Assembly: GCA_964597345.1 (NCBI GenBank)
Contig: CAZQXK010000005.1
Coordinates: 10,144 to 74,143 of the forward strand
Origin: an uncultured Thermodesulfobacteriota bacterium
Lineage (GTDB): Bacteria; Desulfobacterota; Desulfarculia; JACQYL01
DNA length: 64,000 bases
Direction of reading: 5' to 3'
Shown: in pieces, positions 5,773 to 60,250 of the stretch
Layout: each line of letters opens with the position of its first letter
Position numbering within the stretch: position 1 is the first letter of the stretch
Program-made: the position numbers and the translations under genes
The notes under the pieces: model-generated
The model's database searches: none
What the model saw: only the letters and a program-made list of their open reading frames with translations
Told to the model about the DNA's origin: nothing

Positions 5773-6185
5773 GAATTTCTCCTTTGCGCTGGTTCGCGGG
5801 TGTGGGAGGCGAAGCCAGCATCGTCAGTTTATTTAAGAATTAGTATAGGTTGCCCGGACAGTCAAGCAAAAACGGGGTAAATCCCGGTCCGGGTTTCCGC
5901 GCAGCGGTGAATGTGCACGGGAACGTTCCTTGATGGGATTTAACAGGCCCTTGAAAAAGGCGATCTGCGGTCGCTCCAACGGCGTTGCGCTTCATCCTGC
6001 GGCGTACTGTATGTACGCCGCATTCCTCAGGATTCGCGCGCCTTGCATCTCATCGTTTTTCACCAGCCTGCGCGAAATACGGTACCCGAAATACGGTTTA
6101 TCAACGGGCTCTTAAGATGATATGATAATTAGTTGAGCGATGGGTTCCGAGAATGCAATGGGTTTTCACTTCGAGGGAGGTGGTT

Positions 6186-7202
6186 ATGACGGTTCAAAAG
6201 GGAGTCACCCTGGTGGAGCACATCCTGGACCAGGAGAAAGCGAACCCGGATGCTCGGGGGGCTTTCTCGAGACTGCTTACGGAGTTGGTGGTGGCGGCCA
6301 AGATCATATCCCGGGAAGTGAACCAATCGGGATTGGCCGAGTCCATGGGGTTTACAGGGGAAGTGAACATTCAGGGTGAGCAGGTGCAGAAACTGGACGA
6401 GTTCGCAAACCACCTGTTTATTCGGAGGATGCGGAAGTCGGGCATGCTGTGCGGCATGGCTTCCGAGGAAGTGGCGGATGTCATTGAAATTCCCGATCGG
6501 TTCGAATCCGGGGATTATCTTCTTCTCTTCGATCCCCTGGACGGTTCCACCAATATCGATGTGAACGTAAGTATTGGAACAATTTTCTCCATTTTAAGAC
6601 GGAAGTCCCCGGGTCCGCACATGCTGGTCAGCGACTTCCTGCGTCCCGGCAACGAGCAGGTGGCGGCGGGCTATTTCCTGTATGGGTCGAGCACCATGCT
6701 CGTGTACACGACGGGCAAGGGGGTGCACGGCTTCACCCTGGATCCGAGCGTAGGGGAGTTCTTTCTTTCCCATCCGGACATCCGGATTCCCGAGCGGGGA
6801 AAGATCTACAGCGTCAATGAGGGGAATTACCGATTCTGGCCCGAAACTATCCGGAACTACGTGGACTATTTGAAGAGTTCGGACAACAAGATGGGTAAAC
6901 CCTATTCCACGAGGTACGTGGGATCTCTGGTGGCGGATTTTCACCGAAATCTCCTGAAGGGCGGAATCTTCATGTACCCCGCGGATGCCAAGGATCCCAA
7001 CAAGCCCTTCGGAAAGCTGCGTTATTTGTACGAGTGCGCACCTCTCGCTTTCGTGGTGGAACAGGCGGGAGGGTATGCCAGTACCGGAGAGGGCCCCATC
7101 ATGGATTTCGTTCCTCAATCAATTCACCAGCGTTGTCCTCTGTATATAGGCAGTCGTCTGGACGTGATGGAGGCGGAAGAGTTTTTGCGTGGAGAACGCT
7201 GA
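6186..7202 (+). CDS. fbp: Fructose-1,6-bisphosphatase class 1
   Basis: Full-length FBPase I similarity ([16 protein letters not shown]); GGGAGG RBS; start at ATG 6186. Confidence 0.9.
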
Positions 7203-7226
7203 GTAGAGGAAGCGGGACTTTGGATC

Positions 7227-8264
7227 ATGCTGGTTCTGGGTATCGAGACATCCTGTGATGAGACAGCGGCGGCGGTGGTGGAAGACGGGCGGGTGATACG
7301 CTCCAACGTGGTGGCGAGCCAGGACGCCATCCACAAGGATTACGGGGGCGTGGTCCCGGAACTGGCCTCGAGAGAGCATATGCGGGCCGTTCTGCCGGTC
7401 ATCGACCGATCTCTCCGGCAGGCGGGAATTACCCTGCAACAAGTGGAAGGAATCGCGGTGACTCAGGGGCCCGGGCTGCTGGGGTCTTTGTTGATCGGTT
7501 TATGCGCCGCCAAATCCCTGGCCACGGTTCGTAATCTTCCCCTCGTGGGGGTGGACCACCTTGAAGCCCATGTGGCCGTGAACTTCCTGGGGGCGGCTCC
7601 TCCCGATTTCCCATTTACCGCACTGGTGGTCTCGGGGGGGCACACGAATCTGTACCACGTGACGAGTTTCTTCGACTTCGAGTTGCTCGGCCGGACCCGG
7701 GACGATGCGGCGGGGGAAGCTTTTGACAAAACCGCCAAGTTTTTGGGACTCGGATACCCGGGCGGGGTGGTGATCGACCGAATGGCCCGCGAAGGGGATA
7801 TGGAAGCCGTGAGGTTCCCCAGGGCCATGATGGATTCGGACTCCCTGGATTTCAGCTTCAGCGGTCTCAAGACCGCCGTCATCGCTTACATAAAGAAGCA
7901 TCCTCTGAACGGGGCCCGGGATGAACGGCGCGTGTGCGACATCGTCGCCGGTTTTCAGGAAGCCGTGGTGGATGTACTGACGGTCAAGGCGTTGCGCGCC
8001 GCAAAGGGGAACGACACCCGCCGACTGGTCCTTGCCGGAGGCGTGGCTGCGAACAGCCGCCTGCGCCTGAAACTGGGGGAAGGGTCCCGAACGGAAGGGG
8101 TGAAGCTTTTCGTACCGAGTCTTTCCTTATGTACGGACAACGCCGTGGGTGTGGCGGTGTTGGGGTATCATCGCTTGTGCGCGGGTCGTACGGATTCTCT
8201 GGACCTGGATGCCTACTCCCGCGTTCCCAAGTCTTTGTCCTATCCTTCGTCGGCGGTTTCATGA
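7227..8264 (+). CDS. tsaD: tRNA N6-adenosine threonylcarbamoyltransferase TsaD
   Basis: GIETSCDET start; Kae1/TsaD motifs throughout. Confidence 0.9.
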   Translation: MLVLGIETSCDETAAAVVEDGRVIRSNVVASQDAIHKDYGGVVPELASREHMRAVLPVIDRSLRQAGITLQQVEGIAVTQGPGLLGSLLIGLCAAKSLATVRNLPLVGVDHLEAHVAVNFLGAAPPDFPFTALVVSGGHTNLYHVTSFFDFELLGRTRDDAAGEAFDKTAKFLGLGYPGGVVIDRMAREGDMEAVRFPRAMMDSDSLDFSFSGLKTAVIAYIKKHPLNGARDERRVCDIVAGFQEAVVDVLTVKALRAAKGNDTRRLVLAGGVAANSRLRLKLGEGSRTEGVKLFVPSLSLCTDNAVGVAVLGYHRLCAGRTDSLDLDAYSRVPKSLSYPSSAVS

Positions 8265-9118
8265 GCCGTCAACCCCGGACGTTTCCTTCTCGACCCCGCA
8301 AACGTTGGGGACAGCATTTTCTACTGGATCCGAACCAGATCCGAAATATCGTGGAGTCATCCAGGCTCGAGGGGGGAGACTCTGTTCTGGAAATCGGCCC
8401 CGGCCGGGGATCTCTTACCGGCCCTCTGTGCGGTGCGGCGCGTTCCGTGACGGCGGTGGAGATTGATCCGGAGCTGGTGGGTTTCTTACGGGAGCGTTTC
8501 CGGGATTTCCCGAACCTCAGCGTGGTGTGCGGGGATTTCCTGAATTTCGACTTGGCCGCGTTGGCCCGAGACCAGGGGGGCGCTCTCGTGGTGGTGGGAA
8601 ACATTCCATACAATATTTCGGCGCCCATTCTCTTCCGACTGTTGGATTCCCGTTCTTCCATCCGCTCGGCGACCTTGATGCTGCAGAAAGAAGTGGCGGA
8701 TCGGATTCTGGCTCGGCCCGGCAGCAAAGCCTATGGGGTGCTCAGCCTATTGATTCCTTATGAAGCCCGGGCAAAGCGCCTGTTTTCTCTCCCTCCCTCG
8801 GCGTTCAGGCCGAAACCCAAGGTGGATTCCACGGTGATCCGCCTGGATTTCGAACAACCCCATCCGAGAAGAACTCCGTATCCGCATCTGTTCAGGGGCA
8901 TGGTCAAGGCGGGTTTCGGGAACCGCCGCAAGATGCTCAAGAACGCGTTGGGGAACAGCGCATCCGTGCCCGTCGATACGGGAATGGTGCTGGATGCGTT
9001 ATCGGCATGTTCTTTGAATCCGAAGGCGCGAGCCGAAAACCTGGAGTTGGATGACTTCCTGAAGTTGACGGAGGTGCTGGCATCCCGGATCCAGGGTCTC
9101 GACGTTGTGGAGGCCTAG
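8261..9118 (+). CDS. rsmA: 16S rRNA (adenine1518/1519-N6)-dimethyltransferase RsmA/KsgA
   Basis: GQHFL, EIGPGRGSLT and NIPYNIS motifs; ATG at 8261 overlaps the tsaD stop; the long N-terminal extension in the track is spurious. Confidence 0.9.
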   Translation: MSRQPRTFPSRPRKRWGQHFLLDPNQIRNIVESSRLEGGDSVLEIGPGRGSLTGPLCGAARSVTAVEIDPELVGFLRERFRDFPNLSVVCGDFLNFDLAALARDQGGALVVVGNIPYNISAPILFRLLDSRSSIRSATLMLQKEVADRILARPGSKAYGVLSLLIPYEARAKRLFSLPPSAFRPKPKVDSTVIRLDFEQPHPRRTPYPHLFRGMVKAGFGNRRKMLKNALGNSASVPVDTGMVLDALSACSLNPKARAENLELDDFLKLTEVLASRIQGLDVVEA

Positions 9119-9234
9119 TCGTCCGGAAAAGCGCGGTGCAGCGTTCCGGATTGGAATACCCGTGGAAGGCGCCTCGATGCGAGGAGGAAAACGGTTCCTG
9201 TCAAGGCATGGAGTCAAGGGGTGTTGTCAAGGGG

Positions 9235-10271: not shown

Positions 10272-10281
10272 GAGGAAATAC

Positions 10282-11018: not shown

Positions 11019-11198
11019 GCTTTTACAGTGAAAAGCGCGATCCGCAGTCACGCCTTCGGCGTGAGGCTTCATCCTTCATTATTGCGGCTACTGCATGTAC
11101 GCCTCATTCCTTAGGACTCACCACGCCAGAGGCGCGCCTTGCATCGCATCGTTTTGCACCGATCTGTCCGCAATACGGTTGATGAACGGGCTTTTGAG
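11019..11198 (+). mobile_element. MITE-like repeat copy 2b (degenerate left TIR, ~12-bp internal insertion)
   Basis: Has GTCACGCCttcGGCGTGA hairpin 1, TTGCGGCTACTGCATGTACGCC hairpin 2 and a right end ...GATGAACGGGCT. Confidence 0.7.
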
Positions 11199-11321
11199 AT
11201 TTGCTCAGGCGGTAGGAAGCGTTGCGCCGGTCGGGATTTGGAAATTGACTTCACCGCCGGCGGGTGCTATCTAATCCAACTTCGGTGTATGTCACACCCG
11301 CGTCGGAATAATGGAGTCCCC

Positions 11322-11472
11322 TAACAGGCCGTTGAAAAACGCGATCTGCTGAGTTGCGCTTCATCCTTCGTTCTTGCGGTGTACTGTACGCCTCATTCCG
11401 CAGGATTCGCGCGCCTTGCATCTCATCGTTCTTCGCCGGCCTGCCCGCAGTACTGTTTATCAAATGGCCGCC
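11322..11472 (+). mobile_element. MITE-like repeat copy 3 (lacks hairpin 1); ends ~30 bp upstream of the hisH ATG
   Basis: TA|ACAGGCCGTTGAAAAACGCGATCTGC...TCGTTCTTCGCCGGCCTGCCCGCAGTACTGTTTATCAA. Confidence 0.8.
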
Positions 11473-11502
11473 GGGGACTTTCAGGAGTCGGAAGAGCCGC
11501 TT

Positions 11503-14404: not shown

Positions 14405-14499
14405 CGGGCGAATACACGGATGTGGAAACATGCCGGCCGCAGTATCGGCTGCCGTCAATTCTGTTTTTGGTGCGGCGCCCGGTTGCGCAGGGCGCTTGG

Positions 14500-14660
14500 C
14501 ATGCCGTTGGAAAACGCGGGTCACGCCAACGGCGTGACACTTCATCCTTCGTCGTTGCGGCGTACCGTGTGTGCGCCTCAATCCTCAGGATTCGCGCGCC
14601 TTGCATCTCATCGTTTTTCACCGGCTTGTCCACAATGGTGTTTACCAACGGTTTGTTAGG
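14500..14660 (+). mobile_element. MITE-like repeat copy 4 (left TIR truncated)
   Basis: GTCACGCCAACGGCGTGAC hairpin, CTTCATCCTTCG, TTGCGGCGTACCGTGTGTGCGCC, CTCAGGATTCGCGCGCCTTGCATCTCATCGTTTTTCACCGG...CCAACGG. Confidence 0.8.
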
Positions 14661-14850
14661 ATCGGGTGGGACTACGGCGTATCCGGCGACCGTCTTTTTC
14701 GTTCGGGTTCGCGCTCCTGAAGGGCATCGGTTATCACCAGCCTTTCGGAATCCCTATTCTCATAGGACGGCGGAGGGGTTTCGGAGACTCGCTCCTGTAC
14801 CGTTCAGATGCTCCGATTGCTCAGAGCAGGACAGATATTGAGGTATTCTT

Positions 14851-20904: not shown

Positions 20905-22416
20905 ATGGGCGGTTTCACGGCGGAAATCAAGGTGGGGCTCCTGGTGTTGGCGGGGCTGATCGCCGTGGTCTACATGTCCTTCCAGGTGGGACGACCCGAT
21001 CCCACCGAACGGGATGGATACGAACTGGTGGCCTTCTTCGATACGGTCTCGGGGCTCAAACCGGGAACCCCCGTGGAGATGGCGGGTATCCGGATCGGAT
21101 CCGTGGAGGGTATCGGCCTCCATGAGGGAAGGGCCGAAGTGGTCCTGCGTATACGACCGGACGTGCTGATTGCCCATGACGCACAGGCCGTCATTCGGAC
21201 CCGCGGCGTCTTGGGAGACCGCTTCGTTCAGATTGTGCCCGGTTCCCCTCAGGAACCGGCCTTGACCCCCGGCTCGGAAATCGATCAGACGCAATCCCAG
21301 GTGGATGTGGATGAGCTGCTGGTGCAACTCACGGCCATCGCCGAGGATGTGAAATCGGTGACCGCCTCTTTGAAGGGAGCCGTCGGAGGCGTGGAAGGGG
21401 AAGAAACTCTCCGCGAAATCGTCGAAAACACGAGACGCGTCACGGGATCTCTGGACGCCATGGTCACTCGCAATACCGAGATCTTCGAGCAAATTTTGTC
21501 TAATTTCAGGAGCTTTTCCGCAGATCTCAAAGAATTGAGCGGTGTAAACAAAGAAAACGTGCATGTCCTGATCGCCAATGTACGTGGTGCCTCCGAATCC
21601 CTGGAGGAAACCCTGACCGGCCTTCAGTCGATCGTCCGGAGAGTGGAGCAGGGCGAGGGTACACTGGGACGTTTGTTGGTGGAGGATGAAACCATAGAGG
21701 AATTGAATGCGGCACTGGCGTCGGTCCGGGATGTTTCCGACAGAATCAGGAGGGGCGAAGGTACTCTGGGAAAGCTGGTGACGGATCCGTCCATCGGGGA
21801 GAAGTTGGATGAAACATTGACCCATGTGAGTTCTCTGACGGCCAGGGCGGAACGCTTAAGAGTCTACTTGGGCTATCGGGGTGAGTATCTGGTTCGAGGG
21901 GATGACGTGAAATCTTATGTGAACCTTCGAATCCAGCCCTCGTTGGATAAGTATTACCTGCTGAGCGTTGTGGATGATCCTCGGGGACGAATGCGAAGCA
22001 AAGTCACGGATCGTACGGTGACGCATCCCGACGGGAGCACCACGTTCGAGCGCGTGAGCGAGCAGCAGATCGACGAAGACGAACTCAAGTTTTCCGCGCA
22101 GATTGCCAAACGCTACTTTGATACCGCGATTCGAGGAGGTATTATTGAATCGACAGGCGGGTTCGGCGTGGATCATTACCTGTTCGACGACAATCTGAAG
22201 CTTTCCGCAGAGGTTTTTGATTTCGACTCCAGCCGTAAGCCCCATGTCAAGTTTTACGCGGATGCCAATCTCTTTGATCACTTCTATGTTACTGCGGGGT
22301 ACGACGACGCCTTCAGTGACCGGGGACGCAAATCCTTTTTTGTCGGTGCGGGTCTCCAGTTCAAAGACGATGATCTTAAGTTTCTCTTAGGCGGTACGAA
22401 CATCTCCTTGCCATGA
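20905..22416 (+). CDS. mlaD: MCE-family protein (MlaD-like, long form with C-terminal extension)
   Basis: N-terminal transmembrane helix plus MCE domain (LKPGTPVEMAGIRIGSVEGI); 503 aa. Confidence 0.8.
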   Translation: MGGFTAEIKVGLLVLAGLIAVVYMSFQVGRPDPTERDGYELVAFFDTVSGLKPGTPVEMAGIRIGSVEGIGLHEGRAEVVLRIRPDVLIAHDAQAVIRTRGVLGDRFVQIVPGSPQEPALTPGSEIDQTQSQVDVDELLVQLTAIAEDVKSVTASLKGAVGGVEGEETLREIVENTRRVTGSLDAMVTRNTEIFEQILSNFRSFSADLKELSGVNKENVHVLIANVRGASESLEETLTGLQSIVRRVEQGEGTLGRLLVEDETIEELNAALASVRDVSDRIRRGEGTLGKLVTDPSIGEKLDETLTHVSSLTARAERLRVYLGYRGEYLVRGDDVKSYVNLRIQPSLDKYYLLSVVDDPRGRMRSKVTDRTVTHPDGSTTFERVSEQQIDEDELKFSAQIAKRYFDTAIRGGIIESTGGFGVDHYLFDDNLKLSAEVFDFDSSRKPHVKFYADANLFDHFYVTAGYDDAFSDRGRKSFFVGAGLQFKDDDLKFLLGGTNISLP

Positions 22417-22524: not shown

Positions 22525-24093
22525 GTGTTTCAATACGATCTGGACATGGACTGGCTGGATCAGAAAAAAGATCTATCCCGGGAAGAGATTCGAAAGAGGC
22601 TCTCGCGCATGCGTTCTCTTTGCCAAATGGTGCTGGAGATGGGCACCGACGGAATTCTCATTCTGGACGAAGAGGTATGTGTTGAATACGCAAATCGCAA
22701 GGCGGAGGAGCTGACGGGAATCAAGAAGGACCGACTCCTGGGCACCAAGTTCGATATTCTTTTGAACGACGTGGCCCGGCTTCCCTGGCTACAGATTCAC
22801 AGTGAGTTGGTAAGCCGCAAAGAAGACAGCCGCCGGTTTCTCACGGAATTCCTCATCAAGAGGCCCGACGGCTCTCAGTGTACCGTGGAGGCTTGTGTCA
22901 GCGTCGCCAGAACCGATGTGGGGCGTAAGACCTTTGTATATCTCCGGGAACAGACTCTCAAAGACGAAATCATGGATACCCTCCGCAGAACCAATGTGTT
23001 CCTATCCAACATCATCCGCAGTTCCGTGGACGGCATCATGGCCAGCGACATAAAAGGCAATGTGACCTTTTTCAACGAGTATGCCGAGCGTATGCTCGGC
23101 TACCGTTCGGAGGATGTGGTCGGGAAGATGCACATCAGCACGATTTACTCGGATCCGGCCGAAGCGCGTGAGATTATGGCCAAGATCCGGAGCGAGGAAT
23201 GCGGCGGTGTGGGCAAACTCACCACTACGCAAGTGAACTTGAAGGATCGTGAGGGTCGGATCATTCCCTGCAATCTCTCGGCAGCCATGATTTATGAGGA
23301 CGGACAGGAAAAAGCCACGGTGGGAATTTTTACCGACTTGAGAGAGCGGATCCGGATGGAACGGGAGTTGGAGGAAACCCATCTTCAGCTGGTGCAGTCC
23401 GAGAAGATGGCTTCCCTGGGAAAGCTGGCCGCCGGTGTAGCCCACGAAATCAACAATCCCCTCGGAGGGATTCTCATGTATGCCAACATCCTGATGGAAG
23501 ACATGAGCCCCGATAGCCCAGGCTGGAAAGATCTGGAGCACATCGTGGAGCAGACGCTCCGATGCAAGGATATTGTCCAGAACCTGTTGGATTTCAGTCG
23601 TCAAAGCGGAACCGAACAGATCTATTTCAGCGTGAATGAATGCGTGCAGAAGGTGGTTTCCTTATTCAAGGATCAGTCCATGCTGCACGATATACGAATA
23701 GTTCTCGAACTGGATCCGGAACTGCCGCGAGTATTGGGCAATCCGGGTCTAATGAATCAGGTCCTTACCAACTTACTGGTGAATGCCGTCGACGCCATGG
23801 AGGGGGAAGGGGTTCTGACGTTTCGTTCCAGGGCGGATTATCCCCAGGGTGTGCTGGTGGTCGAGGTGGAGGATACCGGGTGCGGGATTCCCGAAGAATT
23901 GCTTTCCCGAGTGTTCGACCCGTTCTTTACCACCAAGAAAGTGGGTAAAGGCACGGGACTGGGGCTGGCAACTTCGTACGGAATCGTCAAGCGCCACGGA
24001 GGTCGGCTTATGGTGAAAAGCGTCGAAGGTATGGGGTCCATTTTTCGTGTCGAACTTCCGATTCCTCCTGATGAGTCTTCCTCGCTACGATAA
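22525..24093 (+). CDS. PAS-domain sensor histidine kinase
   Basis: PAS-like repeats, H-box AAGVAHEINNPL, HATPase G-boxes (DTGCGIP, GTGLGL); GTG start with AAGAGGGGG RBS. Confidence 0.8.
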   Translation: MFQYDLDMDWLDQKKDLSREEIRKRLSRMRSLCQMVLEMGTDGILILDEEVCVEYANRKAEELTGIKKDRLLGTKFDILLNDVARLPWLQIHSELVSRKEDSRRFLTEFLIKRPDGSQCTVEACVSVARTDVGRKTFVYLREQTLKDEIMDTLRRTNVFLSNIIRSSVDGIMASDIKGNVTFFNEYAERMLGYRSEDVVGKMHISTIYSDPAEAREIMAKIRSEECGGVGKLTTTQVNLKDREGRIIPCNLSAAMIYEDGQEKATVGIFTDLRERIRMERELEETHLQLVQSEKMASLGKLAAGVAHEINNPLGGILMYANILMEDMSPDSPGWKDLEHIVEQTLRCKDIVQNLLDFSRQSGTEQIYFSVNECVQKVVSLFKDQSMLHDIRIVLELDPELPRVLGNPGLMNQVLTNLLVNAVDAMEGEGVLTFRSRADYPQGVLVVEVEDTGCGIPEELLSRVFDPFFTTKKVGKGTGLGLATSYGIVKRHGGRLMVKSVEGMGSIFRVELPIPPDESSSLR

Positions 24094-24123: not shown

Positions 24124-25620
24124 GTGGAGGGGATGACGGATCCCGAACTCACGGTGGTTGTAGTGGATGATGAGAAACTCATCCGGGAAGGATGCGCCCG
24201 GGTTCTATCCAAAGCGGACTACCGGGTGTACACCGCCGAGAACGGCCGTGAGGGGTTGGACCTCATCATCCGCCGGCATGCGGATATCGCACTGTTGGAC
24301 CTGAAAATGCCCGTTATGGACGGGATGGCCGTTCTGGACGAAATCCGTGAGCGTCAATTGGATACGGTGGTGATTGTGATCACGGGTCATGGAACCATCG
24401 AGACGGCCGTTCAATCCATGAAACGCGGGGCGTACGATTTCATTACGAAGCCGTTTGCTCCGGATCAGGTTCGCATGGTAGTGCGCCGAGCCTGGGAAAT
24501 GAAACGCCTGGAAAGGGAAGCGGCGTTCCTTCGAGAAGAGCGGGCCAAAAGTCTCAGAGACATCGCCACAGAGAAAAGCCGTATTTCGAACATCATTCAG
24601 GCCATGGCCGATGGGGTGATCATCACGGATCAAAACGCGGAAATCGTACTGAACAATGCCGCCGCCTCACGGCTATTGGGGCTATCGCCCACGGTGCTGC
24701 GGGGTCGGAGTATTACGGAGGTTGTCGCCAATGCCGCCATGACCCGGGCCATCAGCCAGATTCTGAACGCGGATGCGCCCAACGTGTCCACCATAACCCA
24801 GGAATTGGAAGTAAGCGACGATGCACTGGTGCGAGCCACTTCGGGTGTGGTGAGGGATGAGGAAGGCACGCCCATGGGTACGGTGACGGTGCTCCAGGAC
24901 ATTGGACACGTGAAGCGGCTTGAACGAATGAAATCGGATTTCGTGTCCATGGTGGTTCACGAGTTGCGGTCACCTCTCGCGGCGATGCGCCAGCATGTGG
25001 ACTTGCTCCGTTCCCAAGTAATGGGGCCCTTGAATCCTACGCAGCGTGAGACTCTGGATCGTGTGGCGGAAAGAAGCACCGGGCTGTTGCGAATGATCAA
25101 TAACCTTCTGGATCTTTCCAAGATCGAAGCGGGGAAGCTGGTTTTGAACAAGGAACGCCTGGATATGAAGCCGGTAATCACCGCAGTTGTGGAGTTGATC
25201 CGGCCGCATGCCGAGGAACGGAACATTCGGGTGGAACTGGAGCTCCCGGATTCCCTCCCTCCCGTGCTCGGGGACCCCATGTATCTGGAAGGCGTTGTGA
25301 TGAATCTGGTCTCCAATGCCGTTCGATACAATCGGAACGGCGGTTCGGTCCATGTCCAGGCCGGATCCAAGGGGGACATGTTCCTTCTCGAAGTCTCGGA
25401 CACCGGCATCGGCATTGCGAAGGAAGATCTTCCACGGATTTTCGATCGATTCTACCGGGTCCGCAGCCGAGAAACCCGGAAAGTCGTTGGGACCGGTTTG
25501 GGGTTGCCCATCGTGAAAGGCGTGGTGGATGCCCACCTCGGCTCCATCGAAGTGGAAAGCGTTCCGGAACGGGGCACAATCTTTCGGGTGTTCATTCCAG
25601 CCGTTCCCGCCGCCTCCTGA
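24124..25620 (+). CDS. Hybrid response-regulator/sensor histidine kinase (N-terminal REC, PAS, HisKA, HATPase)
   Basis: VVVDDE...LLDLKMP REC domain; H-box HELRSPL; HATPase DTGIGI and GTGLGL. Confidence 0.8.
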   Translation: MEGMTDPELTVVVVDDEKLIREGCARVLSKADYRVYTAENGREGLDLIIRRHADIALLDLKMPVMDGMAVLDEIRERQLDTVVIVITGHGTIETAVQSMKRGAYDFITKPFAPDQVRMVVRRAWEMKRLEREAAFLREERAKSLRDIATEKSRISNIIQAMADGVIITDQNAEIVLNNAAASRLLGLSPTVLRGRSITEVVANAAMTRAISQILNADAPNVSTITQELEVSDDALVRATSGVVRDEEGTPMGTVTVLQDIGHVKRLERMKSDFVSMVVHELRSPLAAMRQHVDLLRSQVMGPLNPTQRETLDRVAERSTGLLRMINNLLDLSKIEAGKLVLNKERLDMKPVITAVVELIRPHAEERNIRVELELPDSLPPVLGDPMYLEGVVMNLVSNAVRYNRNGGSVHVQAGSKGDMFLLEVSDTGIGIAKEDLPRIFDRFYRVRSRETRKVVGTGLGLPIVKGVVDAHLGSIEVESVPERGTIFRVFIPAVPAAS

Positions 25621-27137: not shown

Positions 27138-28418
27138 GTGTGGCGAGCGAGCCTTCCGGACTCCATGATCCACGAATACACGAAGCTTTGTCTCCGGCTG
27201 GGAGGGCGCATGGTCTCCGATCAGAAGCCGGAATCCGTGCTGGAGGAACTATCCAACGGGTATAGGGACCTTTTTCACCTCGATTGCATCTGGGTCCTGA
27301 TGGGCAATGTCAAACTGGGGCGGTGCATTTCTTGGGAAACGGAGACCGACAAACCGCTCGATCTGACGGAATCCGACCAGGAGGCAATTCTCCGATTCCT
27401 GCTGGCCCAGGATGGGTTGATGACTCGCGAAGATCTGTTGAAGGGGGGGTTTCCGCTTTGGGTCCGGCTGGAGCGTTATCCATTCCTTGATTATCTTCCG
27501 GTGCGTGGCCGCGAGGGAACCGTAGGAGCTCTCATCGTGGCCGATCGTTGTCGGTCACTTGCCGAGGAGGAACGGAAACTGGCGGTAATGTTGCTCTCCC
27601 TTGTGGCGGAAGGGATCGCATCGCAGTCGGGTGGCGGATCCCTTCCAGTCTTTCAAGGGGATGAGCGGTCACTCGCCGCCTTGCAGAAGCAGATGGTTTT
27701 CTGCGTTCACGAGTTGAAGGCGCCGGTTGCAGCTGTGCGTCAGTATCTGATGATATTGGAACAAGGGATTGCAGGGGGCATGTCCCAGCTCCAGGAAGGC
27801 ATTGTCCGGAAGGCGTCACTACGTGCGCGGGCGACCTTGGACCTCCTGGACGACTGGCTTATTGCCGCGCGGATCGACGCTGGCCTGTATCCGCAAGAAG
27901 TTCGCCCGGTGAATGTGGCTATGCTGCTGAGACGGAGCCTGGAGGAGGAAGCGAAAGAAGCGGCTGCGAGAAGCGTCGAAATCACCTTGAGGGAACCGGT
28001 TCCTGCAGCGGTGGTTCGGGGAAACGAGGAGTTGTTGGGGAAGGCTTTGCGGTACTTGCTGCGAAATGCGATTCGTTTCAGTGCGCCGGGATTGGATGTG
28101 CAGGTGGAAATGCGGCAGGTCGGTGAGGGAACCAGCATAACGATTGCCGATCGAGGTTGCGGAATTCCGGAGCATGAATTATCCCGGGTATTTGAAGCCT
28201 TTTATCGCTCCAGGGATCCGAAGCTTCAGGATCAGGTGGGCGCCGGGATGGGACTCACGGTGGTGCGCTCCGTGATGGGCCTGCATGGCGGTTGGGTGCG
28301 TCTGTATCGGCGGCCCCAAGGCGGCGTGGAAGCGATTGTCTACTTGCCTTCGGCCTCCGGAGGGAATCGCGCCGGCAGTGTTCCACCGCCTGCTGACTCC
28401 TCGGATGCCGGATTCTGA
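27138..28418 (+). CDS. GAF-domain sensor histidine kinase
   Basis: N-terminal GAF-like region; H-box HELKAPV; HATPase DRGCGIP and GAGMGL. Confidence 0.75.
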   Translation: MWRASLPDSMIHEYTKLCLRLGGRMVSDQKPESVLEELSNGYRDLFHLDCIWVLMGNVKLGRCISWETETDKPLDLTESDQEAILRFLLAQDGLMTREDLLKGGFPLWVRLERYPFLDYLPVRGREGTVGALIVADRCRSLAEEERKLAVMLLSLVAEGIASQSGGGSLPVFQGDERSLAALQKQMVFCVHELKAPVAAVRQYLMILEQGIAGGMSQLQEGIVRKASLRARATLDLLDDWLIAARIDAGLYPQEVRPVNVAMLLRRSLEEEAKEAAARSVEITLREPVPAAVVRGNEELLGKALRYLLRNAIRFSAPGLDVQVEMRQVGEGTSITIADRGCGIPEHELSRVFEAFYRSRDPKLQDQVGAGMGLTVVRSVMGLHGGWVRLYRRPQGGVEAIVYLPSASGGNRAGSVPPPADSSDAGF

Positions 28419-32732: not shown

Positions 32733-32737
32733 AGGAT

Positions 32738-38268: not shown

Positions 38269-38350
38269 GTCCGTATCTCCATGGGCCCGAGCAAAGACCC
38301 TTCTGTGTCGGCGCAGACACCGTGGCGCTCGAACCCTCTCCGCCGCAGCT

Positions 38351-38518
38351 TACCAAGCTGTTGAAAAACGCGATCTGCTTTCACGCCTTTGGCGTGACGC
38401 TTCATCCTTCGTTCTTGCGGCGTACTGGTTGTGCGCCTCATTCCTCAGGATTCGCGCGCCTTGCATCTCATCGTTTTTGAACAGCCTGCCCGAAATGCTG
38501 TTTTTCAACGGGTCGTTA
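38351..38518 (+). mobile_element. MITE-like repeat copy 7 (full), inserted between the two rdgC fragments
   Basis: TA|CCAAGCTGTTGAAAAACGCGATCTGC, TCACGCCTTTGGCGTGAC hairpin, ...CAACGGGTCGT|TA. Confidence 0.85.
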
Positions 38519-38602
38519 CATGCCGCATTGCGTGCGATTCGTGCGTCTTGCATCCGGTCGCCTCTTTTATGACCGCCGACACGCCCGGTTTGGATCGGGT
38601 GG

Positions 38603-39202: not shown

Positions 39203-39282
39203 GGTGTTGGAAGACGATCTCCATGTAAGGGTTTTCGGGGGGGGAAGGCGCGATCCCCCCAACGTCGAACCTCATCCAGCCT

Positions 39283-39380
39283 TACCAGGCCGTTGAAAAA
39301 CAAGAGCTACCGTCATGCCTTTGGCGTGACGCTTCGTCTTTCGTTCTTGCGGCGTACTGTATGTACGCCTCGTTCCTCTT
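39283..39380 (+). mobile_element. MITE-like repeat copy 8 (left ~100 bp only; truncated)
   Basis: TA|CCAGGCCGTTGAAAAACAAGAGC...GTCATGCCTTTGGCGTGAC...TTGCGGCGTACTGTATGTACGCCTCGTTCCTC, then the homology stops. Confidence 0.7.
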
Positions 39381-40183: not shown

Positions 40184-40387
40184 ATATCATCCTCTATATC
40201 CGGTTGGATCGGCGGGAAGGAGGAGCGTCTCGAAACCTTGAGACCGGGATGAGCCGGGCACGATGAACAAAACCCATCTCACGGACGGCCTCGAAGAATT
40301 CCAAGGCATATTGAAAGGTCCTTTCACGGTGGCAACGATTGCGGGGTAAGCCTCGTCCCGGAGTGTTTCCCGGGGATACGCAGGGTC

Positions 40388-40529
40388 TAACAGGCTGTGG
40401 AAAAACGCGATCTGCTGTGTTGCGCTCCCGGCGTACAGTATGTACGCCTCATTCCTCAGGATTCGCCCGCCTTGGATCTCATCGTTTTACACCGGCCTTT
40501 CCGTAATACTGTGTATCAACGGGCTGTTA
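40388..40529 (+). mobile_element. MITE-like repeat copy 9 (lacks hairpin 1)
   Basis: TA|ACAGGCTGTGGAAAAACGCGATCTGC...GGCGTACAGTATGTACGCC...TGTATCAACGGGCTGT|TA. Confidence 0.85.
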
Positions 40530-41006
40530 AACGTGCCGCGCACGCCGCACCGCTGTCCTGCGCCGTGAAGTGGGAAGGTTCTACGGGACTATCGCCGAAC
40601 TTGTCAAGTGGAATATGGCCGCAGCCTGTAAGGCTTGCCAAGCGGGATTATCTGCGGTATTTCTATCCCGGCGGTTGTTTGTTCAGACTATTCCACGCGT
40701 TCAATCCTGGTACAGCCGGAAGCCTCCCAACTACAAAGGTTCCGATGTCTGCGCCGGACATACTTCCTCGGAGGATCGTCCGCAAGTCCGTTGCATGTCA
40801 CGGAATCCCGGATGGGTTGGACCTGGAGTATGTTCCGGCTGTTGCGCCCGCGGGGCCATGGGATGCACCCGGAAGGCCGGAGAAAGGCGCGATCTGCGGT
40901 GTTGACTTTTCGCTTGGTTTCAGCTGCGTATTCCGTGGAGGTGTCGTCCCGTGATTGACGCATTTCAAGAAGCATCGACCTGGACAACGCGCCGGCAAGT
41001 CGGGTC

Positions 41007-41162
41007 TATCAGGCTTTTGAAAAACGCGATATGCGGCATTGGGCTTTATCCTTCGTCATTGCGGCGTACTGTAGGTACGCCTCATTCCTCAGGATTCGCC
41101 CGCCTTGCATCTCATCGTTTCGCACCGCCCTGCCCTTAATAAGGTTTATCAACGGGCTGCCA
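41007..41162 (+). mobile_element. MITE-like repeat copy 10; ends ~53 bp upstream of the enoyl-CoA hydratase ATG
   Basis: TA|TCAGGCTTTTGAAAAACGCGATATGC...GGCGTACTGTAGGTACGCC...GGTTTATCAACGGGCTGC. Confidence 0.8.
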
Positions 41163-41215
41163 GAGTGGGCGGCGGCGATTTTTTGATGAGGCGGATAGAA
41201 AGCAGGAGACAGGAG

Positions 41216-50074: not shown

Positions 50075-50137
50075 ATCCGTTTCCCGGCAAAAACGTTCCC
50101 TATCATCCGTTCTCACGTTCTCCGAGTTTCCCTGATT

Positions 50138-50335
50138 TGCAGGCCGTTGAAAAACTCGATCTGCTGTAACGCCAAGGCGTGACGTTTCATCTTTTCTGCC
50201 TGTGCGTCCCACGCAGACAGGCGTCATTGCGCCGTACCGTATGTACGCCTCATTTCGCCACGCCGAAGGCGCGGCCTGCATCTCATCGTCTTACACCGGC
50301 CCGCCCGCAATACTTGTGCGTCAACGGGCTGTCAG
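50138..50335 (+). mobile_element. MITE-like repeat copy 11 (198 bp; carries an extra internal hairpin CTGCCTGTGCGTCCCACGCAGACAGGCG)
   Basis: GCAGGCCGTTGAAAAACTCGATCTGC...TAACGCCAAGGCGTGAC...insertion...CCGTATGTACGCC...TGTGCGTCAACGGGCTGT. Confidence 0.8.
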
Positions 50336-50558
50336 GGGCCCTTGTTTCGGCAGGGGAGGATAGGGTCCAACGCCTATCGCTTCCGGTCCCTGGAATATTC
50401 CAAGACATAAGACATGAAGACCAACAAAAAAGTCAGCCAAAAAACAGGCTGCCAGGACTGGGTATCCAGGAAGAATCGGGTGAGAAAAAGTGCGGCGCCG
50501 AGGCTCAGGGCGCAACGGATCAACAGTTTCAAGACGGGATTCATGCAAGGCCCTCATT

Positions 50559-50724
50559 TAACAGGCTGGTGAAAAACGCGACCTGCTGTCACGCTAAGGC
50601 GTGATGCTTCATCCTTCGTCATTGCGGCGTACGGGTTGTACGCCTCATTGCTCACCTTCGCGCGACTTTCATCGCATCGTCTTTGAGCAGCCTGTTCGAA
50701 ATGGTGTTTACCAACGGGCTGCTA
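50559..50724 (+). mobile_element. MITE-like repeat copy 12 (full); its right flanking TA lies inside the ruvB stop codon
   Basis: TA|ACAGGCTGGTGAAAAACGCGACCTGC, GTCACGCTAAGGCGTGAT hairpin (G-T/G-U compatible), ...CCAACGGGCTGC|TA(G). Confidence 0.85.
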
Positions 50725-51747
50725 GTATATCGAGTCTTGGATGGCGGGCCCCTTATGACCGAAGTATTCGAAGGCCAGCCGGGTCGCCACCCTGCCCCGA
50801 GGCGTTCTTTTCAAGAACCCCAGCTGTATCAGAAAGGGCTCATACACGTCTTCGATTGTGTCCTTCTCCTCTCCGATGGCTGCGGCCAATGTTTCCAATC
50901 CCAGGGGGCCCCCGTCGAATTTTTCGATGATGGTCAACAGAATCTTTCGATCCATACGGTCGAAACCGCGTTCGTCCACGTCCAGCATACACAGGGCGTG
51001 TCGGGCCACTTCCAAGGTGATGATCCCGTCTGCCCGGACCTGGGCGTAATCCCGTACCCTTCGCAGGAGCCTGTTGGCCACCCTGGGTGTGCCACGACTT
51101 CGGCGGGCGATCTCGAAAGCCCCGTCCGGTTGTATGGGAACCTTGAGAATCTGGGCGGTACGATTGACGATGTAGGTCAACTCTTCCGTCCCATAAAACT
51201 CCAGGTGCAATACCACGCCGAATCGATCTCTCAACGGAGGCGTGAGCAGCCCCGCTCGGGTGGTGGCGCCCACCAGCGTGAATGGAGGAAGGTCCAACTT
51301 GATGGAACGCGCCCCGGGACCCTGACCGATGACGATGTCCAGCTGGAAATCTTCCATCGCCGGATACAGGATTTCTTCCACTACGTGGCTTAAGCGATGT
51401 ATCTCATCGATGAACAACACGTCGTACGGATCCAGGTTCGTCAGGATGGCCGCCAGATCTCCGGGGCGGTCCAGGACGGGGCCGCTTGTGGCCTTGAGGT
51501 TGACGTTCAGCTCCCGGGAAATGATGTGAGCCAGGGAGGTTTTTCCCAGGCCGGGGTGTCCATGGCAGAGTACGTGGTCCATGGCTTCGCCCCGCTGCCG
51601 GGCGGCCTGGATACAGATACGAAGGTGTTCTTTTACTGGGCCCTGACCGATGTATTCGTCCAGTGAATTCGGTCTCAGGCTGACCTCTACCCGCTCCTCT
51701 CCGAGTTCCTGGACGGGATTCAGAACATCTCGCGGGTCATCGGACAT
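50722..51747 (-). CDS. ruvB: Holliday junction branch migration helicase RuvB
   Basis: Walker [21 protein letters not shown]; full-length RuvB. Confidence 0.95.
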
Positions 51748-54210: not shown

Positions 54211-54317
54211 CTGAACGTATAAGTATATTCAGCCGGTAGAGCAAAAGTCAATTTCAAAGGATTGGGAGCTTGGGACGGGACAGAACGAAATCGAACGGGC
54301 CTGTTCGGTTCTCCGCT

Positions 54318-54473
54318 TAGCAAGTCGGTGAAATACACGATCTGCGGCTTTGTGCTTCATCCTTCGTCATTGCGGCGTACTGCAAGTACGCCTCATTCCT
54401 CAGGATTCGCCCGCTTTGCATTTCATCGTTTTTCACCGGCCTTCCCGTAATACAGTTTATCAACGGCGTGATA
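54318..54473 (+). mobile_element. MITE-like repeat copy 13 (lacks hairpin 1)
   Basis: TA|GCAAGTCGGTGAAATACACGATCTGC...GGCGTACTGCAAGTACGCC...CAGTTTATCAACGGCGTGA|TA. Confidence 0.8.
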
Positions 54474-54579
54474 GGAGCTTTTCCGGAGCTGCCTGAAGCG
54501 GCGTGAAAGCGGGTCACCGGATCAGTGTACGCAATCCGCCTGGGGCAATCCGGACATCCCCCGAAACTCCATCGATTGG

Positions 54580-55932: not shown

Positions 55933-56108
55933 GTCCGGAGAATGCCAGCGGACGAAGAAAGGTTCTCCATTTGGGTTTGGGGGGTCGGACGGATCACACC
56001 GGCCGGTATTCGGAGCGCGGGTCCTGTGGGAGGCGCCGTCATGACCCGCGGTGGTTTGAGGCAGCCGTATGCGGTGGGAATGCCCAGGTTCTTCCACCAG
56101 CGCGTTAT

Positions 56109-56305
56109 TAAACCGTGTGAGTGCGGGCCAATGCAAAACGATGAGATGCAAGGCGGGCGACTTCTGAGGAATGAGGCGTGCATACAGTACGTCGCAATGA
56201 CGCCTGTCTGCGCCTGCCTGTGCGCGTCCGCCCGCAGACAGGTGGACGCACAGGCAGAAAGGATGAAGCCTAACGACGCAGATCGAGTCTTTCAACGGCC
56301 TGCTA
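56109..56305 (-). mobile_element. MITE-like repeat copy 14, the only reverse-oriented copy; carries the extra-hairpin insertion; its flanking TA lies inside the stop codon of the downstream rRNA methyltransferase gene
   Basis: Reverse complement of the family consensus (AACGATGAGATGCAAGGCG..GAGGAATGAGGCGTGCATACAGTACG...CAACGGCCTGC|TA). Confidence 0.85.
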
Positions 56306-57490
56306 CAGGACTCTGCAGATCATTCCTTTGAGGTATTCCGACTCCGGGAATGAAATCAAGACGGGATGGTCGTTGGATTGGCTCAACGGTTCGAGTATCT
56401 GAAGGTGGCGACCCGCGTCCATGGAGGCGGCCGACACCGTCTTTCGAAAAAACTCGGCGGGCATGTTTCCGGAACAAGAAAAGGTGGCCAGGATTCCTCC
56501 CGGGTGAAGCAGTTTGACGGCCAGGAGATTGATGTCCTTGTATCCTCGAGCCGCACGGTCCAGGTGGGCTCTCGAATGAGCGAACTTCGGGGGATCCAGG
56601 ATTACCATACCGAAAGAACGGTTCTCGTCCCGGTAACGCCGCAACAGATGGAATGCATCGCCTTCCACCGCATGCCCGGGTGGAGAAGGGTATCCGTTTC
56701 GCTCCATATTTCGGTCCGATAGTGACAAGGCTTGGGGGGAGACGTCCATCCGGATGACAGAACGGGCTCCGGCGCCTATTGCGTACACCGAGAATGCGCC
56801 GGTGTACGTGAAGCAATCCAAGACGTCCCTTCCTGTTGCGTATCGGGCCACCGAAGGCCGGTTTCGGCGTTGGTCCAGATAGAACCCCGTTTTATGCCCG
56901 CCCTTCACATCCACCAGAAATGTGTACCCGTTCTCGCGGATCTCTAGTACACCGGAAGGCTCTCGGCCTCTCAGTGCTCCGGCCACGGGTTCCAGACCCT
57001 CCAGGGATCTAGCCCGGACGTCGCTTCGTTCGTAAATTCCGGAGGGATGAACCAGACTCATCAATAGATCGACCAAAAGATGCTTGACCTTTTCGATGCC
57101 CGCGGTCAGGCTCTGGACCACTACAAAATCCTCATACCGGTCCACGATCAGGCCCGGTAAAAGGTCCGCTTCTCCGTATACCAGCCTTAAGGCGCTGGTG
57201 GAACCGTAATCGGGCGAATCCATGCGCGCCTGGATGGCGCGTTGCAGGTGTTGCTCCCACCAATCGGCATCCACACGGAGGCTTTCGCTCGATTCCAGCA
57301 GCCTCACCCGGATTTGGGAACAAGGGTTGTAGTATCCCCAGGCCAGGAATTGATTTCGGGCGTCCACGACACGAACGATGTCGCCCGGCTCCGGATTTCC
57401 CAAGACCCGATCCACAGCTCCGGAAAAAACCCATGGATGACGGCGATGAACCGATCGATCCCGGTCATGTTTGAGTTGAACTCGGATCAT
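56303..57490 (-). CDS. Class I SAM-dependent rRNA methyltransferase, RlmI-like (PUA + MTase)
   Basis: RHPWVF PUA-like start and C-terminal MTase motifs (DCFTYTGAFS, DPPKF). Confidence 0.8.
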   Translation of the reverse strand: MIRVQLKHDRDRSVHRRHPWVFSGAVDRVLGNPEPGDIVRVVDARNQFLAWGYYNPCSQIRVRLLESSESLRVDADWWEQHLQRAIQARMDSPDYGSTSALRLVYGEADLLPGLIVDRYEDFVVVQSLTAGIEKVKHLLVDLLMSLVHPSGIYERSDVRARSLEGLEPVAGALRGREPSGVLEIRENGYTFLVDVKGGHKTGFYLDQRRNRPSVARYATGRDVLDCFTYTGAFSVYAIGAGARSVIRMDVSPQALSLSDRNMERNGYPSPPGHAVEGDAFHLLRRYRDENRSFGMVILDPPKFAHSRAHLDRAARGYKDINLLAVKLLHPGGILATFSCSGNMPAEFFRKTVSAASMDAGRHLQILEPLSQSNDHPVLISFPESEYLKGMICRVL

Positions 57491-57675
57491 GCCGCCAACA
57501 GCGGGAACCGGATCAGGAATGTTCCCACTGCGCTAACCTCCTGTACGGACGAAAGACCACGGTAAGCCGGGAAAAGCCGTTTCAGCCGGGGTGAATCTAT
57601 TCTACGGTTACGGATCCGTCAAACTGAAAGCCGCCTTTTGATGTATTCAGGATCGATCCTTGTCTCTTTCATCCT

Positions 57676-57834
57676 TATCCGACTGGTGAAAGACGCGACC
57701 TGCTGTCACGCCAACAGCGTGACGGCTCATCCTCCGTCATTGCGGCATACTGTATGTACGCCGCATGCCTAAGGATTCGTGGGCCTTGTATCTCATCGTT
57801 CTTTGCCGGTCCGCCCGCAGACTTCATATCATTA
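57676..57834 (+). mobile_element. MITE-like repeat copy 15 (degenerate right end)
   Basis: TA|TCCGACTGGTGAAAGACGCGACCTGC, GTCACGCCAACAGCGTGAC hairpin, GGCATACTGTATGTACGCC...CCGCCCGCAGAC.. Confidence 0.75.
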
Positions 57835-59179: not shown

Positions 59180-59460
59180 AAAGCACCTCCTGTTTCAATT
59201 TCACGTCATGGCGGAATGTACCGCCGTCGAGCCTTGAAGTGAACTATCGTTTTCAACCCTGCACGGAACGCCGCCATATGTGAGCGCAAAGCTCCAACGC
59301 GTCCCTGCCGGCGATAACTCCCAGGCCGAACTGTACCCAAGGCTGAGCCCCCTTGTCAACGAACTCGCCGCATGAAGGGATGCGACATGGTCCCATCATG
59401 AGTCGGAGCGTTCAAGAAACTACCTTCGGGCTGCTGGGTCACTATGACGGAGTGCGGTGT

Positions 59461-59489
59461 TTGACCTCGTCTTCCCGCGGAAGTATAAG
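59461..59489 (+). promoter_or_regulatory. Candidate sigma70 promoter (TTGACC-N17-TATAAG) for the 59583 gene
   Basis: Good -35/-10 with a 17-nt spacer, about 95 bp upstream of the ATG. Confidence 0.4.
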
Positions 59490-59582
59490 GAAATATAGGG
59501 ATCGGGAAAAATAACTCGGAAGCCTTCCGCAGATATGCGGATTCCCAAGCGGCATGCAAGGGTCTTCTGGAGGAATACAAGG

Positions 59583-60161
59583 ATGAAACGGAACTATTGC
59601 TTGAACGTATTACTCTTGAGTGCGATGTTAGGTTTTTCAGCTGGGGATTACGCGGAAACGTCGGCCCAGTCTACGGCTGAACCCACTTTCGCGGTACTAC
59701 CGTTCTTTATGCCGGGTGAAGCGAAAGACTATGTGCACGTGATCATGAAATCGCTTTACGACGTGGTGGAAGACATGGAACTCTTCGTGCCTGCGTATTC
59801 CTATTACCCCGGGGATGGAAGATACTCGCCTGAAGCCATTCCCGCAGGTCAATTACAGCCCGGCGAGATATCAAGGCTTTGGAAGCGGAAGAGTTTCTTC
59901 GCTCCCTGGGAGCCCAATGACGCTCTCGTGTTCGAGATCGGGGAGAGGCTGGGAGTCGATGGAGTGCTTCTCTATTCGGTGCAGATCTTGGGTCGTGGAA
60001 ACGACCGAATTCAGTCATTTTTGTATCATATCAAAGATCGCCGGGTCCTTACCAGAGGAGTGGTGGACGAGATCAAGCATAACTACACCAGTGAAATCTC
60101 CACGGTGATGCTCTCCTCCCGAATTCGACAGGTGACTGCCGACGTGTTTTACAAGTTCTAA
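59583..60161 (+). CDS. Secreted hypothetical protein with signal peptide
   Basis: MKRNYCLNVLLLSAMLGFSAG signal; AAGGA RBS; FAVLPF motif as seen in periplasmic/outer-membrane-associated domains; its stop TAA is the TA flank of MITE copy 16. Confidence 0.5.
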   Translation: MKRNYCLNVLLLSAMLGFSAGDYAETSAQSTAEPTFAVLPFFMPGEAKDYVHVIMKSLYDVVEDMELFVPAYSYYPGDGRYSPEAIPAGQLQPGEISRLWKRKSFFAPWEPNDALVFEIGERLGVDGVLLYSVQILGRGNDRIQSFLYHIKDRRVLTRGVVDEIKHNYTSEISTVMLSSRIRQVTADVFYKF

Positions 60162-60250
60162 CAGGCTGTCGAAAAAACGCGATCTGACGTACCGTCTGTG
60201 GCGTACATTTTCTTCCTTGCCGTATCTGTGATCGGCCTGTCCGAGCCGGT
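60159..60250 (+). mobile_element. MITE-like repeat copy 16 (degenerate/truncated, ~90 bp)
   Basis: TA|ACAGGCTGTCGAAAAAACGCGATCTGACGTACCGTCTGTGGCGTAC...ATCTGTGATCGGCCTGTCCG. Confidence 0.55.

Follow-up and report, generated by a model that had tools for sequence, protein, structure and literature searches.

The window analyzed here (64 kb of DNA from an uncultured Thermodesulfobacteriota bacterium; contig CAZQXK010000005.1, positions 10,144 to 74,143) carries 19 copies and fragments of an intergenic element that is ∼155–165 bp long and contains no open reading frame (ORF); all of them lie between genes supported by Pfam matches. The element is a non-autonomous miniature inverted-repeat transposable element (MITE) of IS5 type, a new sequence family of an ordinary kind, and the orientation of its copies is linked to the direction of replication.

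Copies of the element and their strand

Copies were located with a profile hidden Markov model (HMM) built from nine full copies and run with nhmmer over the window. Seventeen of the 19 lie on the plus strand and two on the minus strand (two-sided binomial p = 7e-4). The plus-strand set includes four weak fragments (at 4214, 32308, 40874 and 60157); for copies with E<1e-5 the count is 13 to 2 (p = 0.007), and with adjacent copies merged per locus (the groups 11028/11320, 32308/32574, 40384/40874/41003 and 50135/50556) it is 12:2 (p = 0.013). The 17-mer that defines the left end, ACAGGCCGTTGAAAAAC, occurs 23 times in the window with up to three mismatches, against 0.22 occurrences expected, and repeat finding returned overlapping families of 7–13 copies, all direct except in the region at 56.1–56.3 kb. 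A preliminary description of this DNA had noted a strand bias despite mixed gene orientation, and the profile search bears this out at a slightly stronger ratio. It had also named a single minus-strand copy, at 56109–56305: that copy is real (56090–56306), but a second one, at 5317–5428, had been missed.

Genes were called by codon-usage score, and 30 ORFs flanking the copies were checked with Pfam; the verified genes lie on both strands. Plus-strand copies are found between minus-strand genes at seven loci (for example MBL/GT2, DUF3047/rdgC, rdgC/PRTase, dedA/ruvB, ftsJ and rlmI/marC), between plus-strand genes at two (panD/GATase and amidohydrolase/DUF1015), in divergent regions at two and in a convergent region at one. 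For the most part GC skew in the window is positive on the plus strand, and it is close to zero or slightly negative where the genes run on the minus strand.

Anatomy of the element and its target site

The element is bounded by terminal inverted repeats of 16 nt, CAGGCCGTTGAAAAAC on the left and GTTTATCAACGGGCTG at the outer right end. Read from left to right the consensus consists of NTAN, the left arm and the bases that follow it (CAGGCCGTTGAAAAAC GCGATCTGC), the core, an inner right arm (R1, GTTTTTCACCGGCCTG), an 11-nt spacer, an outer right arm (R2, GTTTATCAACGGGCTG) and again NTAN. The ends are therefore asymmetric: a single arm in forward orientation stands on the left, whereas two reversed arms, direct repeats of one another and 27 nt apart, stand on the right. 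All three arms are copies of one 16-mer, with CAGGCCGTTGAAAAAC matching the reverse complement of the outer right arm (CAGCCCGTTGATAAAC) at 14 of 16 positions and that of the inner right arm at 15 of 16.

The four bases immediately outside the arms form a direct repeat that is separate from the inverted repeat (gtag/gtag, ttac/ttac, gtat/gtat, ctat/ctat and gtaa/gtaa are instances). Identical 4-bp flanks were found in 13 of 54 copies, whereas shuffling leads one to expect 2.1 (the maximum in 2000 shuffles was 8), and among copies whose left flank is non-palindromic there were 12 direct matches and no inverted ones. The central T and the central A of the NTAN consensus are each present in at least 80% of copies; the outer positions of the flank match between the two sides in 32 and 25 of the 54 copies, compared with the ∼27–31% estimated from base composition. 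Duplication registers of 2, 5, 6, 7 or 8 bp found no support in the same 54 copies, and no copy shows an exact register of 2 bp only. The flanking repeat is a 4-bp direct target-site duplication with a central TA, inserted at a roughly palindromic target (CC-NTAN-GG). The TA signature of the preliminary description is thus the middle of the duplication, but the duplication itself is the direct 4-bp NTAN.

Copies vary around this plan. Some in the window carry a short hairpin, GTCACGCC-TTYG-GGCGTGAC, right after the left arm (38372–38395, 14518–14538, 50580–50600, 11045–11065, 39305–39331, 57697–57720 and 32327–32350) and others do not, and on this basis two sub-families occur together in the window. 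A short form stops at the inner right arm and lacks the outer one; it is represented in the window at 57675–57819 and in three metagenome loci (L106 5786–5913, L164 30–176 and L199 1111–1244). Such copies are either an ancestral form or deletion derivatives. In two further loci (L100 487–648 and L197 816–975) the extra arm precedes the core instead of following it, the arrangement that an inversion of the core, between its left arm and its inner right arm, would give.

Relationship to an IS5-family insertion sequence

A scan of public viral contigs for the left arm, most of whose other matches were chance 16-mers, returned an insertion sequence (IS) of ∼1.3 kb with the ends of the MITE (locus L294, 8945–10272). 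It reads CTAG, CAGGCCGTTGAAAAAC … TTTTTCAACGGCCTG, CTAG and encloses an ORF of 378 aa, which matches NCBIfam NF033581 (IS5 family transposase) with 287 bits against a cut-off of 140, and Pfam DUF772 and DDE_Tnp_1. IS5 duplicates 4 bp at YTAR-like targets. The assignment of the repeat to the IS5-type MITEs follows from its ends and from the length of its duplication, which it shares with an IS coding for a DDE transposase of the IS5 family: the 16-nt terminal inverted repeat (CAGGCCGTTGAAAAAC) is the same in the two, and each is flanked by a 4-bp duplication centered on TA, CTAG for the IS and NTAN for the MITE. The palindromic target is also common to the MITE and the IS5 group, but two copies of the right arm are found only in the MITE. 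Judged from these sequence features, the MITE is most likely moved in trans by an enzyme of the IS5-family type, through a double-strand reaction with staggered cuts.

The partner itself was not encountered in the genome of the window, which was sampled as the 64 kb and scattered loci. Pairs of ends 0.6–3 kb apart and enclosing an ORF were absent from the 1.5 Mb of genome and metagenome loci, where such spacings represented only neighboring MITEs.

Other classes of mobile element were considered. The preliminary description had mentioned a TIR/TA signature and a search for IS630 transposases; an IS630 or Tc1-mariner MITE is ruled out, the duplication being 4 bp rather than TA and the IS with the same ends encoding an IS5-family DDE transposase. 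It had also pointed to single-strand mobilization of the IS200/IS605 or REP/RAYT kind, which the 16-nt terminal inverted repeats and the direct 4-bp duplication contradict. Elements of that kind (IS200/IS605, PATEs and the REPINs built from repetitive extragenic palindromic (REP) sequences) share with the MITE a replication-tied orientation and a strong potential to form hairpins, but they lack terminal inverted repeats and duplications, insert 3′ of a fixed short motif and need a Y1/HUH enzyme. An IS200/IS605 PATE, which inserts beside a fixed tetra- or pentanucleotide, is ruled out by the inverted repeats, the 4-bp duplication and the symmetric target, and a REPIN, with its inverted pairs of palindromic 20–40-nt units and its associated RAYT gene, by a unit of ∼160 nt that carries a duplication.

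Closer in general appearance are Correia elements of Neisseria, ERIC and RUP/BOX/SPRITE, which like the MITE are 100–200 bp long, non-coding and intergenic, with inverted ends, a TA-containing duplication, long hairpins and sub-variants. A further parallel is Tn7 in its TnsE pathway, the ends of which are functionally asymmetric, with differing numbers of binding sites, and the insertion orientation of which is set by the replication fork and the beta clamp (cited in PMC3971601). The asymmetric ends resemble those of the MITE, and the orientation set by the fork resembles what is proposed for it; Tn7, however, makes 5-bp duplications, has TGT…ACA ends and employs a dedicated targeting protein, and nothing of the sort was seen for the MITE.

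Orientation and GC skew outside the window

A metagenome scan specific to the window type of element yielded 120 loci, and the HMM gave 106 hits in 46 loci, which form 44 non-overlapping clusters. Once overlaps, split hits and shared flanks had been removed 101 unique insertion sites remained, 86 of them outside the window; the loci stem from a handful of related populations, and the counts are to be read with this in mind. At 59 of the 86 sites the plus orientation of the element lies on the locally G-rich strand when raw local GC skew is used (59:27, p = 7e-4), and with skew corrected for gene strand (slope 0.056) the figure rises to 63 (63:23, p = 2e-5); taken together, the estimates span 58–63 of the 86 sites (p = 2e-3 to 2e-5). 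When each locus has a single vote the ratio is 30:8 (p = 5e-4), and seven loci tie. On other contigs of the genome to which the window belongs, assigned to it by the same coverage, orientation agrees with skew by 14:3, and the minus-strand copies are found at negative skew (L160, L200 and L208). Copies of a second type found in metagenome-assembled genomes (MAGs), referred to below as the other type, lean in the same direction but more weakly, at 40:27 overall and 24:12 on strongly skewed loci, and are not significant alone.

Overall, the G-rich strand is the one on which left arm, core and right arms follow in that order for about three quarters of copies (a ratio of ∼3:1, exceeded in the window) and for about five sixths of the well-preserved ones. 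The latter (at least 140 bits) are the most biased, 35 of 41 being concordant with skew as against 41 of 60 for the remainder. By the usual convention the G-rich strand is the leading strand, and so has the sequence of the lagging-strand template. The bias is linked to the direction of replication, at a level of ∼75–85%, and is not a sampling accident. The replication-strand-like bias of the preliminary description is thus recovered on independent contigs, with skew as the proxy for replication: orientation changes sign with skew, here standing in for the replichore, within the same genome, and the even split between orientations that would speak for an accident was not seen outside the window.

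Orientation is independent of the direction of neighboring genes. Gene-strand balance agrees with it at 49 of the 86 sites, and of the copies flanked by two co-directed genes 16 share the direction of those genes and 25 oppose it, neither result being significant. Concordance with skew is seen in every gene context: 13:4 beside leading-strand genes, 21:3 beside lagging-strand genes, 8:2 in divergent and 6:3 in convergent regions. An asymmetric target motif was considered as the cause of the bias and rejected, since the target is palindromic; asymmetry of the hairpin was likewise rejected, since concordance does not depend on it.

Relatives in other genomes and the core module

The window forms part of OSEO01000037.1, a 330-kb contig from a sediment metagenome, and Ga0209270_1000070 overlaps its left end with 99.7% identity. 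Scanning a genome collection for the pattern of the core located the element in MAGs labelled Syntrophus, Smithella, Syntrophaceae and Syntrophales. Full copies of the window type were found in just one of the scanned MAGs, labelled Syntrophobacteraceae (L002, L008 and L043). The other-type elements (loci L005–L090; examples are L026 3346–3437 and 5699–5795, L049 1519–1608 and L073 1831–1939) have a 90-nt core that is almost invariant and arms that read GACGGCTTCGTAAAAAG. In these elements the left arm and the inner right arm covary, the outer right arm taking no part; they carry extra hairpins at three fixed places and hairpin loops of variable length, and their flanking direct duplication is ∼6–8 bp (bracketed only) as against 4 bp in the window type.

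From these comparisons the core has the appearance of a module that is carried between transposon ends which have diverged. This modularity of core and arms is the least ordinary feature of the family; a divergence of the ends together with their transposases is the only account that we can offer.

In the MAG JAKQIZ01 (loci L025, L037, L047, L050, L079 and L085) many contigs break off within the element at almost the same point, as expected of near-identical, high-copy repeats that interrupt k-mer assembly, and the family has probably been active recently in that genome; the high copy number of the element accounts for assembly breaks in the related MAGs. One other-type copy (L044 3463–3552) lies on a contig binned as the archaeon Candidatus Methanoperedens, which reflects either a binning error or horizontal transfer. 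In L045 and L066, from different MAGs, the element occupies the same place directly upstream of a gene (the shared site lies ∼25–30 nt upstream of the element), the product of which starts MGKIIGIDLGTT and which, by eye only, we take to be dnaK-like; the shared position may represent an old orthologous insertion or a favored target.

What sets the orientation

The best explanation, and to our minds a reasonably probable one, is that this IS5-type MITE acquires its orientation at insertion, through coupling of the reaction to the replication fork. Because the ends of the element are asymmetric the transposition complex would be polar, and it may contact an asymmetric feature of the fork, for example the beta clamp or gaps on the lagging strand. 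The MITE type, the asymmetric ends, the symmetric target and the correlation with skew belong to the observations; the contact with the fork is what we infer from them.

Fork-linked insertion has been proposed for IS5-family and other DDE elements (Gomez et al. 2014, PMC3971601). In that work, which measured orientation against local GC skew, IS5a, ISL3, IS30, IS3 and others show a replication-linked and family-specific bias in some chromosomes, so that the expectation voiced in the preliminary description, that DDE elements insert in either orientation, is too strong. Its authors argue against selection after insertion, report that a peptide of the IS5a transposase binds the beta clamp, and cite IS903, a member of the IS5 family, for a link between transposition and replication (PMC3971601). 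In the transposase of the L294 IS, residues 23–27 read QSNLF. The clamp-binding pentapeptide is QL[SD]LF, and the resemblance is offered as a lead only. Pneumococcal BOX, RUP and SPRITE elements are found on the leading strand in 61–63% of cases, a mild bias that mirrors that of the coding strand (PMC3049150); the bias of the MITE is stronger and does not depend on the direction of neighboring genes. A search of the literature for a Syntrophus MITE, or for MITE orientation in relation to replication, found nothing specific, and we found no published report of a replication-linked bias in a gene-less MITE, although such a bias fits the parent IS family. As the MITE has no gene, its bias cannot come from selection on transposase expression or from co-orientation of coding sequence with replication.

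Several points weigh against fork-coupled insertion. IS5a has no significant bias in the Proteobacteria as a whole, its published bias being significant only in the Firmicutes (PMC3971601), whereas the MITE is biased in a Thermodesulfobacteriota-like, Syntrophales-related organism; that an IS5-family transposase would insert in a fork-oriented manner in this lineage is argued by analogy. The L294 IS lies on an unrelated public contig and has only its terminal 16 nt in common with the MITE, the interior of which is therefore unrelated, so that the MITE is not a simple deletion derivative. Replication direction was read only from the local GC skew of metagenome contigs, and the gene-strand correction could be slightly circular, which makes the raw-skew figures the conservative ones. 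Discordance affects about one copy in four, including copies on strongly skewed loci (L112 and L176). In the two copies with an apparently inverted core (L100 and L197; n = 2) it is the core, and not the arrangement of the arms, that follows skew, which slightly questions the part assigned to the asymmetric ends. The higher bias of well-preserved copies, which speaks for an orientation set at insertion, is only suggestive; it would also fit intact copies being lost preferentially when wrongly oriented.

That last point belongs to an alternative in which both orientations are inserted and one is subsequently lost or counter-selected, either because the strand-specific hairpin that is the more stable one, when on the lagging-strand template, favors deletion by slippage from one 4-bp duplicate to the other, or because one orientation interferes with replication or transcription. 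The element is indeed a long quasi-palindrome, the minus strand of which folds the more stably (−33.1 versus −30.9 kcal/mol with DNA parameters; 64 of 75 copies), and its dominant orientation places the weaker-folding strand on the G-rich strand, that is, on the lagging-strand template, in the direction expected from palindrome deletion; such deletion is reportedly orientation-dependent on the lagging strand (Trinh and Sinden, in 1991). Of the two discordant copies of the window, moreover, one is a degenerate fragment and the other has damaged right arms. Yet concordance does not depend on hairpin strength (71% in the strongest energy class, 72% in the next and 89% in the weakest) and is flat across classes of strand asymmetry in folding (76%, 76% and 74%), folding is no weaker in discordant copies, and older, degraded copies show no increased bias. 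The element is not enriched in promoters or terminators, and its orientation bears no relation to the direction of neighboring genes; we regard loss after insertion as unlikely, if the most serious of the alternatives.

The invariance of the core invites a different thought, that it is a functional non-coding RNA or regulatory module, co-oriented by selection against head-on transcription and merely dispersed by the ends. In the MAGs of Syntrophus, Smithella and other Syntrophales these 90 nt hardly change, whereas the arms and the length of the duplication do; loops vary in length, extra hairpins occur at the three fixed places, the left and inner right arms covary, and in the two flipped variants it is the core that follows skew. 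However, Rfam returned no match at gathering thresholds in the whole window, and at relaxed thresholds (E≤10, 38.3–41.25 kb) no family but two chance-level matches, both outside copies. A consensus scan for promoters and terminators over 10 kb containing six copies gave no enrichment and no recurrent site in the element. The covariation lies mainly in the arms and is accounted for there by the coevolution of inverted repeats; pairs in the core are almost invariant and their covariation is uninformative. Within the family of the window type the arms are as conserved as the core, and copies sit in every gene context. We therefore hold a dispersed RNA module to be improbable. An equally small chance attaches to a variant in which a structured RNA or single-stranded DNA module rides different transposon ends and would itself set the replication-strand polarity, for example by recognition of the lagging-strand template.

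Single-strand mobilization by a Y1/HUH enzyme, of the PATE or REPIN kind and targeted to the lagging-strand template, would account for the sign of the bias, which is that of IS200/IS605, and for strong hairpins on either strand. Peel-and-paste HUH transposition makes no target-site duplication, however, whereas the MITE has a direct 4-bp one, together with 16-nt ends identical to those of an IS with an IS5-family DDE transposase, a unit of 160 nt in place of a 20–40-nt REP, and a palindromic target in place of a one-sided fixed tetranucleotide. No Y1 or RAYT gene was found among the Pfam-checked ORFs beside copies, the rest of the genome not having been searched. We give this mechanism very little credence. 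Less still is due to a sampling accident or to local copying by hopping or segmental duplication: several copies in the window are adjacent pairs, and the 19 are accordingly not 19 independent events, but the ratio per locus is still 12:2, flanks and duplications differ between copies, and the association with skew recurs on the 44 non-overlapping clusters of other contigs, where its sign flips with skew.

Because the element is free of genes, the family offers a clean natural case for the idea that the complexes of some DDE elements, here of the IS5 type, sense fork polarity, outside the Firmicutes where most biases have been reported. The orientation of copies also provides an extra marker of replication direction on the fragmentary contigs of uncultured Syntrophales-like bacteria.

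Two further roles were considered for the sequence of the element and rejected. A sigma-70 promoter in the arm of the other type (TTGACG-17-GATGCT), or a function as terminator, fails for want of enrichment in the consensus scan. A small-protein gene in the core (either the minus-strand frame MTKDEAQRS… or a read-through ORF of the plus strand) is incompatible with hairpin-loop lengths that differ among copies by non-multiples of three.

Individual copies in the window

Full copies on the plus strand score between 148 and 174 bits with nhmmer. The leftmost (5936–6121, 152 bits) lies between the divergent genes yggT and fbp and has a TTAA/TTAA duplication and an extra, third right-arm repeat. 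Its right arm region is a tandem triplication with an additional CCCGAAATACGGT unit, which indicates that the 27-nt unit of arm plus spacer can expand. A copy at 11320–11479 (160 bits) adjoins one with a degraded left end at 11028–11202 (110 bits), downstream of panD, and another (14493–14666, 157 bits) lies between plus-strand genes for an amidohydrolase and a DUF1015 protein. Minus-strand genes surround the copies at 32574–32742 (174 bits; TTAA/TTAA duplication), at 38347–38519 (169 bits; TTAC/TTAC direct duplication, between DUF3047 and rdgC) and at 54315–54480 (171 bits). The copy at 40384–40532 (148 bits) has a short internal deletion and occupies a divergent intergenic region; that at 41003–41169 (172 bits) stands just upstream of an enoyl-CoA hydratase gene, and that at 50556–50730 (154 bits) beside the 3′ end of ruvB.

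Incomplete copies on the plus strand comprise a left half between minus-strand genes (39281–39378, 64 bits, model positions 5–90), the short-form copy at 57675–57819 (94 bits, model positions 6–138) and the four weak fragments. These are a right end with the second right arm only (4214–4261, E 4.8e-4, model positions 120–167; direct-repeat family D14), two left parts (32308–32359, E 2.3e-4, families D7, D8 and D11; and 40874–40930, E 5e-3, family D12) and a left end (60157–60189, E 1.3e-3, families D11 and D15).

The degenerate minus-strand copy at 5317–5428 (E 1.3e-7, model positions 55–166) retains the right two thirds of the element and lies between yggT and divIVA. It is also present in locus L091, which overlaps this stretch of the window at 99.7% identity. 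Around 5300–5330 it abuts the start of divIVA, where the arm-derived GGCTGATAAGGAG forms an apparent ribosome-binding site before the ATG.

The second minus-strand copy (56090–56306, 77+33 bits) lies in a convergent intergenic region and shares with a plus-strand copy at 50135–50339 (94 bits; inverted pairs I11, I17 and I18) a palindromic internal insertion of ∼45 nt, CTGCCTGTGCGTCC…CGCAGACAGGCG, their segments being 88–96% complementary. The common insertion places the sole full-length minus-strand copy in a distinct sub-variant. The two form inverted repeats 5.9 kb apart that enclose ruvB-ftsJ-DJ-1, and could drive inversion of the intervening segment.

Other features of the window

A tRNA scan found no tRNA genes in the window. 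Three neighboring ORFs of ∼500 aa (20905–22416, 22525–24093 and 24124–25620) are followed by a fourth at 27138–28418. A diverged 45-nt motif (repeat family D16) occurs at 21307, 24955 and 27705, and its recurrence suggests that the ORFs carrying it may be paralogues.

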